Shown here: positions 30,247-35,990 of the stretch, piece after piece | Position numbering within the stretch: the first letter of the stretch is position 1 | Layout of the letters: the number at the start of each line of letters is the position of its first letter | Source of the DNA: a virus | Length of the DNA: 37,439 bases | Virus record (IMG/VR): IMGVR_UViG_3300045988_085122 | Location: 1-37,439 of that record | Strand: one strand, 5' to 3' | Made by a program: the position numbers and the translations under genes | Notes under the pieces: generated by a model | What the model saw: the letters and a program-made list of their open reading frames with translations, nothing else | What the model was told of the DNA's origin: nothing | Databases searched by the model: none

Positions 30247-31104
30247 CTAAATGTAAACTGAATTGATAAATTGAGCATCATTGTTTAGATGTTCGTTATA
30301 AATCGCGTATCTCATAGCATCCATTACGTCATCGTTTTGTTTGACTGGTTCGCCTGTTTTATCATCCCAGATGTATGTATAAATTTCATCTAGGAAACTT
30401 TGCACTGCTGAACTCAAAACAAAAAAGCGTCCTAACTTCATCAGTTTAGCCACGCTTTCTATTCCTGCCATACGTGCTTTATTTGCATTTCTGGTGTTTA
30501 TTCCATTACGTAAGAACTCATTGTAATTATCCGGCCTTGCTCCGTCTATAAAAAAGGTAACGTTGTATCCATATCTTTTCTGAATGCCCTTAGCAATATT
30601 AACCCAATAATCAATGAATTTGTGTTTTTTAGTATGTTCTTCAATTAGATAAGTGTTTCCCTTGTCGTCGTCTCCAAACAACACTATTGAGCCTTTGTGT
30701 TCATATCCCCAGTCAACTCCCGCATAATAATGTAAATCCTTCGGAACTTTGTCTACTAGCATACGTTTTTTATCGAAATCTTGATAAACCATGCCTTCCC
30801 CTGATACCCACAAGCCTAAAACATCCCGCTCATACATCATACCACTTGGTGTCATCGCTTTTTGGTCGTTGATATACTTTTGGCCTAGAAAGGACTCATT
30901 ATCATCCAAAGTAAAATGCGTGGATGATACTCTAACTTCTGGCTTGTCGTTATCTAAATAATCCACCTTCAGCCAGTGCTGGGGGTGGTCCGGATTAGTG
31001 TCACATATAATCTTGGCTTCATCTGCTGAACATCTATCCATGATTTCTTTAAACACATATCTATTAGCAAGGGATGCTTCATTAACGTATGCACCCCATG
31101 CTGT
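30247..31104 (-). CDS. terL: terminase large subunit, exon 2 (Walker B region plus C-terminal nuclease domain)
   Basis: Reads TAWGAYVNEASL...DDVMDAMRYAIYNEH, with the terminase nuclease aspartates. The in-frame TAA immediately upstream shows the 5' part lies across the intron. Confidence 0.85.
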   Translation of the reverse strand, partial: TAWGAYVNEASLANRYVFKEIMDRCSADEAKIICDTNPDHPQHWLKVDYLDNDKPEVRVSSTHFTLDDNESFLGQKYINDQKAMTPSGMMYERDVLGLWVSGEGMVYQDFDKKRMLVDKVPKDLHYYAGVDWGYEHKGSIVLFGDDDKGNTYLIEEHTKKHKFIDYWVNIAKGIQKRYGYNVTFFIDGARPDNYNEFLRNGINTRNANKARMAGIESVAKLMKLGRFFVLSSAVQSFLDEIYTYIWDDKTGEPVKQNDDVMDAMRYAIYNEHLNNDAQFINSVYI

Positions 31105-31479
31105 CATCATTTAATACCCCTGGTTTCCCAGTATTTTAAAAAGGGATTAGACTATATCTTCAATATTAATAAATAATATTGTTCCGCACTTCCAAATAAG
31201 GAATTTCACCTTAAATGTACTCCATAAAGGATAGTCGTTACACCTTCCTTGATTATCAAGGCTTGGCACGGTATTGTCATGCAAATTCAAAATGTAAACC
31301 TCTATATTGTTTATTAGATGGTGAAATTATTCTATATACATAACCAATCATTTATATAACCCCCTATGGTGCTTATATAAATGACTATACTAAGAATTTG
31401 TTTAGATTTCTACCGTTAGCATCTTTAAAAGATACACCTAACATTTATTAGTTCACGGAATTACGTGGCTAGACTATTA
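31105..31479 (-). ncRNA. group I self-splicing intron interrupting terL (no homing endonuclease ORF)
   Basis: RNA-sense sequence carries the S element AAGAUAUAGUCU (reverse complement of 31146-31157) and the R element ACGACUAUCC (P7: GACUA/UAGUC). The internal guide GCCACG pairs with the exon-1 end CGUGGU, giving a U-G wobble at the 5' splice site. P9 forms cugg-GAAA-ccag. The intron ends in G before ACAGCAUGG. Boundaries are inferred, plus or minus a few nt. Confidence 0.75.
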
Positions 31480-31842
31480 ACCACGGATGGCACCTAAGCC
31501 ACCAATAGAACCAGTATAAGCTAGAACGACTTTAACGCCAAATAAAGTGAAATTACCATGCTTGTCAAACTTGAATTCTATTCCATACTTGTTGCGCAAT
31601 GGATTAAGTATATTCTGTTCGATCGTCTTAGATGATACACCAGCAAGGATATATTGTGGCTCTCTGAATTTAACTGCATCCGCTCGTTTTCTAACTGCTC
31701 GTAATTCCATTAGAAACAAGTCATTGTCAATTACAGTCTTCCCAGAACGCTTAGCACCATAGTTAATCATCAATCGAAAGCCTTGCTTGTACTTCTTCAA
31801 AACTTCGATTTGGCGTTCGCTATACATCTGTCTTAGGCCCAT
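31480..31842 (-). CDS. terL: terminase large subunit, exon 1 (ATPase N-terminus, Walker A GAKRSGKT)
   Basis: MGLRQMYSERQIEVLKK...INYGAKRSGKT...VVLAYTGSIGGLGAIRG, then an intron-encoded stop; the N-terminal 121 aa alone cannot be a functional TerL. Confidence 0.85.
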
Positions 31843-32345: not shown

Positions 32346-32377
32346 TTAACCTAATTGATTTAACGTCCTTCTGAAAC
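32346..32377 (-). promoter_or_regulatory. copy C of the conserved element AATTGrTTTAACrTyCTTCTGAAACm, upstream of terS and overlapping the Dam stop
   Basis: ctaattgatttaacgtccttctgaaaccatg matches 36021-36050 (caattggtttaacattcttctgaaacatca) at about 26 of 30 positions, with further similarity extending toward terS. Confidence 0.6.
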
Positions 32378-33271
32378 CATGTAAAGTTTCTCACACCTCT
32401 TATTAACGCCCCCAGCATATGTACCACGCGCCGTTTTAAACTCCCAAACAACCTTAAAACGTGGATCTGGAATGTTGTAGCCGGAAATAATTACAATATT
32501 TCTCTTGGACATCTCAACACACCAGTCATAGAACAATTGATAATCGAGCTCGAATTTATAGTCATTTTTTGTGTTTTGGTACGGCGGGTCAAGATAGAGA
32601 ATAGCATTTTTAACATTTGAAAATGCTGTATAGTCATAATTAGTTAGTTTCAGTTTTTGTGTTTGTTGTAATTGCCCCAACTGTTGCAGCCGTTCCAGTT
32701 GTGCCAGCCGTTCCAGTTGCGTCAGCCGTAGTATTTGTTTCGGTCGCCCTGGTTGCTTAGCGTTTCGGTAGATTTCCGTTTGCCTATAGCCACTAAACAC
32801 ATCATGTTTTTTTATAATTTCAATTGCGAGATTGTATTTTTCGTTAGACTGTTCTTTGTTGTACAAGTACCTCTTTGAATTATTAGCGAAAGAATTGACT
32901 AGCAATTTAAGATTGTCATCAACTGTTTTTTCTTTTTTATCACGAATAGTCAGAAACTCGTCACGTGAAACAATCAATGCTTTGAGCCATTTTCTATCTT
33001 GTGAGATGACTCTTACAAACATATTTGTAACATCGCTGTCTAAGTCGTTGTAGTGAACCCACATATCATTCAATAGCAACTCTGCAGTAATTGCACCGCC
33101 ACCGCCGAAAACGTCGTAAACTGGTATATCACTTCCGAAGTTTTGCTTGATTATCTCCACGATTTTTTTGGATACTTTTTTCTTGCTTCCAACATACGGG
33201 AGCCCAATAGGTTTTCCTTTTCGAATTTTTTTGTCGTCTAGTTGTAAAATCGGAACCCCCCTTGATTGCAT
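32360..33271 (-). CDS. dam: Dam-family (D12 class) N6-adenine DNA methyltransferase with internal QLERL-type repeat insertion
   Basis: Motif I VYDVFGGGGAIT and motif IV YLDPPYQNTKNDY. An internal LRLTQLERLAQLERLQQLGQLQQTQKLKL is encoded by tandem cagccgttccagttg-like repeats (32690-32745). The start is taken as the ATG at 33271; the track's longer ORF reads through an upstream terminator and is rejected. An AGGGGGG run 3 codons inside this ATG may instead be the Shine-Dalgarno for a later, non-canonical start. Confidence 0.8.
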   Translation of the reverse strand: MQSRGVPILQLDDKKIRKGKPIGLPYVGSKKKVSKKIVEIIKQNFGSDIPVYDVFGGGGAITAELLLNDMWVHYNDLDSDVTNMFVRVISQDRKWLKALIVSRDEFLTIRDKKEKTVDDNLKLLVNSFANNSKRYLYNKEQSNEKYNLAIEIIKKHDVFSGYRQTEIYRNAKQPGRPKQILRLTQLERLAQLERLQQLGQLQQTQKLKLTNYDYTAFSNVKNAILYLDPPYQNTKNDYKFELDYQLFYDWCVEMSKRNIVIISGYNIPDPRFKVVWEFKTARGTYAGGVNKRCEKLYMVSEGR

Positions 33272-33278
33272 AAAAAAA

Positions 33279-33300
33279 GAACAGTCGTTAAAACTGTTCT
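33279..33300 (-). terminator. Rho-independent terminator (agaacagt-cgttaaa-actgttct plus T7 on the minus strand) immediately upstream of dam
   Basis: 8-bp perfect stem followed by seven T on the transcribed strand. Confidence 0.6.
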
Positions 33301-33399
33301 CTGTAAAGGAATAGAATGAAAAATGATAGTTAATTGAAAACCCAAAACATGAGTAAAATATAAAATGCAATTATATCCACATAACGCTGCGGCCACGGT

Positions 33400-35546: not shown

Positions 35547-35990
35547 TTTTACCTCTCCTTATCGTTTTAATATTATACCGGTATAAATGCCTTGCCACGC
35601 CCTCAAAACGTGTGACCAGCTCAAATCTTGTGGATGCAAGGTGGTGTTACAGGCTTACGAAGAACATGTTACGGAGTTTTGCTCCTCTCAATTTATTTGG
35701 CCTGTAACGTATTTAAAAGATTAAGTAGGTTTTATAAACCCTAATTTTTGGCAATAAATTCGCTTGGTTGCTGCAGCATGAATTAATGGGAAAGGGAAAT
35801 TTACACCTACCTTTTTAATAAATTTTGTTGTTTGCAGCTTCCTTACATCTTTACCACCTATGACTTAGCATCCTTTGACAGATACTAAGTCTGTACTGTG
35901 TCGCTATTTGTGAGATCCTGATTTACGGTTTTTTGTGTGAATGTATACCGTTCAAATAACCACGTCAGCATTTAACAGTTTTACGACTTG

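Follow-up and report, generated by a model that had tools for sequence, protein, structure and literature searches.

Group I introns in terminase genes are already well known from LL-H, Moonbeam and the Bastillevirinae (PMC4299906, PMC11878797), and reviews name terminases as typical targets of these elements (PMC3984707). The candidate described here, from a phage of Ligilactobacillus salivarius, adds one more; in the literature searched, no report of an intron in L. salivarius phages was found. The DNA analyzed, hereafter the window, is a whole viral stretch of 37,439 nt. Its host follows from the names of the cluster members and agrees with the presence of the salivarius-1 RNA in the window, and the phage is regarded as a temperate L. 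salivarius phage, common as a prophage or gut phage. The salivarius-1 sRNA motif (RF03030) gives a full-length match at 35587-35642 on the minus strand (75.1 bits, E 7.6e-15).

Several described introns can be compared with the one in the window, which occupies 31108..31479 of the minus strand. In LL-H, also a phage of a lactobacillus, the large terminase gene is likewise interrupted by a group I intron, but the host species and the terminase are different, and LL-H is absent among the DNA matches listed. The LL-H terminase intron reportedly carries an ORF. In Staphylococcus epidermidis phage PH15 (DQ834250), terL is annotated as a joined CDS that encloses a 'SegB homing endonuclease'. Its intron matches the 3' half of the intron in the window at 75% identity across 133 nt (E 6e-11) and shares with the window copy the host gene, the elements P3, P3.2, P4, P6, P7, P7.1, P7.2, P8 and a GAAA-capped P9, as well as the placement of the endonuclease gene in the P5 loop. 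However, the PH15 intron is inserted elsewhere, in a different terminase and in an unrelated portion of it, has P2, lacks P3.1, and retains its endonuclease intact. The best DNA match (141 nt at 75% identity, E 2e-16) is the intron in yonO, the phage RNA polymerase gene, of phi3T and many SPbeta-like Bacillus phages. It agrees with the window intron in the P3 - AAC - P3.1 - P3.2 - UAA - P4 layout and in P7.2, P9 and tail type UAUCAAAG, and it differs in host gene and genus, in the presence of P2 and in a C-G pair of P7 where the window has U-A.

The lysin-gene intron of Streptococcus thermophilus phages is 82% identical to the window over the P4'-P6-P7-P7.1 segment (E 1e-6). Its host gene is the lysin gene instead of terL, and the endonuclease ORF of SW28 lies downstream of P7.1 and not in L5. 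By the account of Foley et al. (2000) that is cited in PMC3952083, this intron exists in a full-length endonuclease-bearing form and in shorter forms with deletions of the endonuclease ORF. The segment of the window intron comprising its positions 202-372 (intron position p lies at window coordinate 31480 - p) is 74-83% identical to other phage introns in BLAST searches, with a best E of 2e-16. Its matches are the yonO spacer of phi3T and SPbeta-like phages, the PH15 terL intron, the S. thermophilus lysin-gene insertion and terL of Twillingate, whose annotation reads 'interrupted by two introns'. The phage IA2 introns, T4 td and Twort orf142-I2, presumably resemble the window in having P7.1 and P7.2 between P7 and P3'. 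We take the R-type and S-type motifs AACGACUAU and GAUAUAGUC to be common to the window and the td/orf142-I2-like introns, as well as a stop codon soon after the 5' splice site. These introns have P2 and are not known to possess the P3.1 and P3.2 hairpins. The td endonuclease gene resides in P6a, whereas that of the window lineage resided in P5.

The interrupted terL gene and its predicted splice junction

Profile comparison showed that two ORFs on the minus strand, 31477-31842 and 30247-31110, each encode a portion of a single TerL of the PBSX family. Exon 1 (31480..31842, minus strand) has 121 codons, carries the Walker A motif GAKRSGKT and matches positions 2-89 of TIGR01547; exon 2 (30247..31107, minus strand) consists of 286 codons plus the stop, starts with AUG ACA GCA (M T A) and matches positions 106-394. 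The joined 407-aa TerL covers positions 2-394 in one stretch as a single match of 169 bits, which bears out the initial annotation in its view that TerL is encoded in two pieces. At the protein level, the intron falls after the invariant RG and ahead of the Walker-B-like YVNEA motif. Exon 1 ends with ...CGU GGU, the UAA codon at 31479-31477 is formed by the first three intron bases, and the downstream ORF (31110-30247), read as an open reading frame, has 287 codons with an in-frame ATG ATG at its start. Neither exon contains a frameshift or a stop.

Upstream of the exon-1 ORF, and overlapping it by 23 nt, is the gene of a 164-aa HTH protein (32314-31820, minus strand), probably the small terminase (terS); an SPP1-type portal gene follows the exon-2 ORF on the same strand. 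A D12-class adenine methyltransferase gene upstream of terS (32360-33370, minus strand) contains a LERLAQLERLQQLGQLQQ-type repeat, and its called length varies from 156 to 364 aa across ten otherwise near-identical contigs (L005-L014). When the whole terL region was compared with phages by megablast no match was obtained, and exon 2 found only relatives at 54-64%, in other lactobacilli, among genome contigs. Public annotation has missed the intron in terL: in NCBI exon 1 is a 'hypothetical protein' (MYU70418.1) and exon 2 a truncated 'PBSX family phage terminase large subunit' (WP_160996908.1), and UVY23118.1 is a further public record in which the terL exons are annotated as separate proteins.

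The boundaries of the intron were set by two intron-less alleles, L016 and L017. Their DNA is collinear with exon 1 plus exon 2 and reads CGTGGT^ATGACAGC (the caret marks the junction), or, over a longer stretch, ...ATACGTGGT^ATGACAGCTTGG..., where the window has ...ATCCGTGGT, 372 nt, and then ATGACAGCATGG...; shifted placements never yield the same product. Because L016 and L017 read straight through CGTGGT^ATGACAGC, the 372 nt are an exact and unambiguous insertion, and since these alleles fix both ends, the intron extends from 31479 to 31108 (minus strand, 31% GC). The intron-less site reads ...GCTATACGTGGTATGACAGCTTGGGGC.... The 5' splice site after U31480 proposed by the initial annotation is thereby confirmed. 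The 3' end, which had been placed at G31105 to give a spacer of about 375 nt (31105-31479), is not: the last base absent from the intron-less alleles is G31108, the omega-G, one codon upstream of the site first claimed, and the length is corrected to 372 nt. Related introns likewise end in ...AAAG or ...AAAUG.

Protein comparison leads to the same junction. A search with the joined protein returned more than 4000 homologues; the nearest of full length, P0001 among them, are 402-407 aa long, share 89-95% identity and are continuous through the junction. In each of the 30 full-length sequences aligned, RG and T are separated by a single residue, which is M, L, S or F. The in-frame joining of the exons claimed earlier therefore stands in so far as excision restores the conserved uninterrupted frame, matching TIGR01547 end to end, but the junction GAIRG^TAWG that had been given deletes a residue present in 30/30 homologues; the correct one is GAIRG^MTAWG. 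With the Met codon retained, the spliced TerL aligns continuously with intron-less homologues, and its junction GAIRG^MTAWGAY, which keeps the conserved Met/Leu, is identical to that of the intron-less P0001. A 3' splice site at 31105 is thus ruled out by the L016/L017 DNA together with these homologues. The predicted junction would read CGUGGU^AUGACAGC in the spliced RNA and ...GCCATCCGTGGT^ATGACAGCATGG... in cDNA, with ATCCGTGGTATGACAGCATGGGGT as the 24-mer across it, and the predicted junction-spanning peptide of TerL is GAIRGMTAWGAYVNEASLANR.

Predicted fold of the ribozyme

At gathering thresholds, a Rfam search of the whole window returned the salivarius-1 RNA only and no intron. A permissive local search with the group I model RF00028, the check proposed in the initial annotation, does give a match at 31129-31238, but at 26.8 bits (cut-off 50; E 1e-4 on 801 nt) it is borderline; the alignment consists mainly of J8/7-P7' (GAAGAUAUAGUCUAAUC) and P9, and only P7-P9 is well aligned. 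Other Rfam families appeared in the local search with E values of 4.5 and 8.4 only. Partial Rfam matches have been reported to be common for phage introns (PMC11878797). We also used a covariance model, R1, trained on eight lineages (PH15, phi3T and six IMG/VR contigs retrieved with a core pattern), none of them that of the window. Model R1 finds a single match in the 37-kb window, at 31144-31243 on the minus strand, with 95.2 bits and an E of 3.8e-21. Thus the curated Rfam model scores this intron type below threshold, and a small lineage-specific model finds it unambiguously. A blastn query with the first 205 nt of the intron yielded, besides short matches at chance level, just a 39-nt match at the starts of endonuclease genes of Staphylococcus phages.

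The fold could be followed from the splice site onward (all coordinates on the minus strand). In P1, the exon sequence CGUGGU (31485-31480) pairs with the guide GCCACG (31469-31464) across a 10-nt loop, and U31480 stands opposite G31469 as a wobble pair at the splice site. P2 is absent, and four nucleotides (UAAU) lead from P1 to P3, which is formed by UCCGUG (31459-31454) and UGCGGA (31188-31183). Between P3 and J3/4 (UAA) there are two hairpins: P3.1, with CUAAU (31451-31447) paired to GUUAG (31442-31438) around an AAAU loop, and P3.2, with GUAUCUU (31435-31429) paired to AAGAUGC (31425-31419). P3.1 is a recognized optional pairing (PMC3873408). P4 pairs CGGUA (31415-31411) with UACCG (31273-31269), where relatives have CAGGG/CCCUG or CUGGG/UCCAG. 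Comparison of lineages assigns 31277..31410 to J4/5, P5 and the L5 loop, and this loop formerly housed a homing-endonuclease gene. P5 itself is tentatively placed as two pairs, UC (31406-31405) with GA (31278-31277). The alternative GUCAU/AUGAC pairing for P5 is broken in L015, a sister copy of the intron, and was rejected.

The 3' part contains the catalytic core (31150..31236). P6 and P6a occupy 31267-31242, with GCC (31267-31265) paired to GGU (31244-31242) in P6 and CCUUGA/UCAAGG closed by a UAA loop in P6a. P7 pairs GACUAU (31236-31231) with AUAGUC (31155-31150), and the corresponding sequences ACGACUAU (5' strand) and AAGAUAUAGUC (3' strand) are both present. P7.1 (31230-31222) and P7.2 (31217-31193), of which the outer pairs covary, precede the 3' strand of P3, and P8 (31181-31161) is joined to P7 by J8/7, GAAGAU. 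P9 pairs CCC (31145-31143) with GGG (31119-31117) and is extended by P9a, CUGG/CCAG with a GAAA cap (31131-31120). The intron closes with a tail of 9 nt, UAUUAAAUG, which ends at the omega-G 31108 and is of a type common to the relatives. P10 is weak, with 3 bp and an offset of 2 nt. Every placed helix of the window has canonical pairs throughout. Three elements had already been recognized in the initial annotation and are found where it predicted them: the guide GCCACG with its U-G wobble to the end of exon 1, the two P7 (R/S) strands, and the GNRA-capped CUGG-GAAA-CCAG of P9. P7.1 and P7.2 are listed as class features in PMC3984707, and, judged from the predicted helices, the layout is of the phage IA2-like type, with P7.1/P7.2, without P2 and with the additional P3.1/P3.2 hairpins.

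The helices are supported by compensatory changes. Among ten lineages, with strands picked by eye and with P3, P4 and P7 held in a fixed register by invariant anchors, such changes occur in P3, P3.1, P3.2, P4, P6, P7, P7.2, P8, P9 and P9a, P7.1 being the exception; P3.1, P3.2 and P4 rest on structural comparison, as the 5' 200 nt are without DNA relatives in the phage collection. All six positions of P3 show compensatory changes, and the helix reads UCCGUG/UGCGGA in the window, UCAGUG/CGCUGA in phi3T, and CUGGUG/UGCCAG or GGGGUG/CGCCCU in others. One U-A pair of P7 in the window is C-G in phi3T, and P9a changes from CUGG/CCAG to CUAG/CUAG in L015, a G-C to A-U replacement. The U33C polymorphism (L005 and others) turns a U-G pair of P3.1 into C-G. 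The module formed by P3.1 and P3.2 (31419..31451) is conserved and covarying in 9-10 lineages. When MAFFT aligned the eight outside lineages without supervision, 92.5% of the cells were paired, compared with 80% after shuffling (0/500 as high) and about 40% with slid partners. A model in which the hairpin 31442-31419 served as P2, with P3 beside J3/4, failed: in 10/10 lineages the strand that covaries with the 3' strand of P3 is found upstream of the hairpins. Six relatives (L002, which is phi3T, L023, L024, L025, L035 and L043) have a longer P3.2 with a distal conserved motif, (A/C)AGGAAAUG(A/G)U, perhaps an element of tertiary contact; in the window, L001 and L044, P3.2 is short and lacks this motif.

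Endonuclease remnant and related split genes

The window intron was initially described as small and free of any endonuclease gene. It contains no intact endonuclease, but it does contain a stub of one, and it is a deletion derivative. Alignment with L015 delimits the stub as 24 codons at 31351-31277 on the minus strand, MIGYVYRIISPSNKQY^RGLHFEFA followed by a stop, so that 16 sense codons from the start and 7 from the end of a GIY-YIG endonuclease gene survive; the UGA stop of the stub overlaps the putative 3' strand of P5. L015 has the same intron at the same site in a 1141-nt form with a 280-aa ORF in the P5 loop, in which the Pfam domains GIY-YIG (PF01541), NUMOD3 and an I-HmuI NUMOD-like domain were recognized and PF22083 was matched. 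Compared with L015, the window copy has lost 768 nt in frame, with the deletion junction between 31303 and 31302, and the YIG motif and all the DNA-binding modules, the NUMOD modules included, are gone. The deletion is wholly inside the L5 loop and the closing bases are kept. A GIY-YIG ORF is likewise carried by the copies of this intron that L031 and L039 have at this site. A hairpin at 31348-31384, with 17-nt arms that are 88% complementary, encloses the Shine-Dalgarno sequence and the AUG of the stub, which suggests that translation of the endonuclease was structurally repressed in the ancestral intron.

The 372-nt form, with 0-3 substitutions, was found in all ten of the other examined contigs that carry the exon-2 ORF (L005-L014); nine of them are 30.7-38.6 kb long and one is 146 kb, they come from 10 different sample accessions, and both exons are open in each. 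Between the window and L015 the introns are about 97% identical and the exons 86.4% identical; therefore the intron arrived, or was exchanged, after the alleles had diverged, as homing predicts. From these sequences the window copy is a non-autonomous derivative of a mobile intron that has lost its mobility gene. Three stages are thus seen at one site in one phage population: intron-less, endonuclease-bearing, and with an in-frame deletion of the endonuclease.

Split genes of a similar kind were seen elsewhere. In phi3T (KY030782.1, locus 2242-2637) and other SPbeta-like phages a related intron splits yonO, which in the inspected records appears as two ORFs ('hypothetical protein' or yonO_2) with the intron unannotated. 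Applied to phi3T, the rules used here predict the junction ...NNFTID^FAKTLFMP..., and the intron-less yonO of SPbetaL1, SPbetaL8 and Goe12 reads through it without a break. Three L. salivarius prophages (L054-L056, e.g., GCA_009866205.1 VSUN01000001.1) have a TerL of the same family that is split at a second, downstream site into ORFs of 311 and 117 aa. The spacer of about 880 nt (L054:3437-4313) encodes a 208-aa HNH_3 endonuclease and gives a sub-threshold match to RF00028 (28.9 bits, E 3.8e-5), which suggests a further group I intron in terL, distinct from the first. At this downstream site the window has no interruption.

Alternative explanations, proposed splicing and implications

In our judgment, 31108-31479 is very probably a functional group I intron that interrupts terL. 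The precise absence of the insertion in alleles with 95% protein identity, the covarying core, the homology to other phage introns and the match to model R1 all uphold the initial proposal of such an intron on the minus strand. It would be improbable, though the scenario deserves to be stated, that the element is a splicing-dead relic, with a ribozyme that is defective or that folds defectively after the deletion, and with terL a pseudogene in a decaying or satellite-dependent prophage. The sub-threshold RF00028 match, the weak P5 and P10 and the already decayed endonuclease gene would fit such a relic. However, the core helices are all intact with canonical pairs, and the deletion is confined to the L5 loop with the closing bases retained, a type of derivative for which the S. 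thermophilus lysin introns offer a precedent in the account of Foley et al. (2000) cited in PMC3952083. Furthermore, the same 372-nt intron with 0-3 substitutions recurs in at least ten contigs from 10 sample accessions with open exons. The exons of the window are also without frameshift or stop, and the spliced CDS, 86.8% identical at the nucleotide level to the intron-less L016 with its frame undisturbed, differs from it in 125 synonymous and 19 non-synonymous codons, a pattern that suggests a working gene. This synonymous-dominated divergence mostly reflects the history before or around the insertion, and by itself it is compatible with an intron that died recently.

The two other explanations do without a ribozyme, and we give them still less weight. 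Very little speaks for a naturally split terminase, in which products of 121 aa and 286/287 aa would assemble without RNA splicing and the spacer would be ordinary intergenic DNA: public annotation does have two genes (MYU70418.1 and WP_160996908.1), and exon 2 begins at an in-frame ATG ATG, but the break would divide the ATPase fold, separating Walker A from the Walker-B-like motif, at a place where the aligned full-length homologues are all continuous. The spacer, moreover, is a homologue of conserved ribozymes (E 3.8e-21) with covarying helices, and an endonuclease-bearing version occupies exactly the same site. The exactness of the insertion relative to the intron-less alleles would also suit an IS, a MITE, a group II intron, an intein or a translational bypass element, and yet an insertion of any of these kinds is what we consider the least credible. 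Terminal inverted repeats or a target-site duplication were looked for at the ends of the spacer and none was found, no credible match to another Rfam family was obtained (E 4.5 and 8.4 only), and the group I core elements are all present. An intein is excluded because the sequence begins with UAA. To our knowledge, 372 nt is far beyond the known translational bypasses, such as that of T4 gene 60.

For the group I intron, the anatomy leads us to infer that splicing occurs and that it is independent of proteins. In the mechanism that we propose, terS and terL would be transcribed together as a single RNA, and the guide GCCACG would pair with the exon-1 end CGUGGU so that a U-G wobble forms at 31480. 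P7 would bind a free guanosine, which would then attack after U31480. The terminal G31108 would take its place in the P7 site, and the 3'-OH of exon 1 would attack after G31108. Ligation of ...CGU GGU to AUG ACA... would produce the message for the 407-aa TerL (GAIRG^MTAWGAY), and on the unspliced RNA the ribosomes would halt at the UAA that opens the intron.

The finding leaves the knowledge of how group I introns work unchanged; what it offers is chiefly a better annotation and a view of intron decay within a population. A wider reading is offered tentatively, and we lean against it at present. According to it, Firmicutes phages would harbor a widespread clade of group I introns defined by the covarying P3.1/P3.2 module; the two copies tested are sub-threshold in Rfam, so that split essential genes (terL, yonO and the second L. 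salivarius terL site) would be annotated as fragments. The endonuclease-less 372-nt form would be common in L. salivarius phages and may persist or spread by means of endonucleases supplied in trans by co-infecting relatives. For the phage itself, once the intron is recognized the terminase is again complete at 407 aa, and judgments of prophage integrity are corrected.
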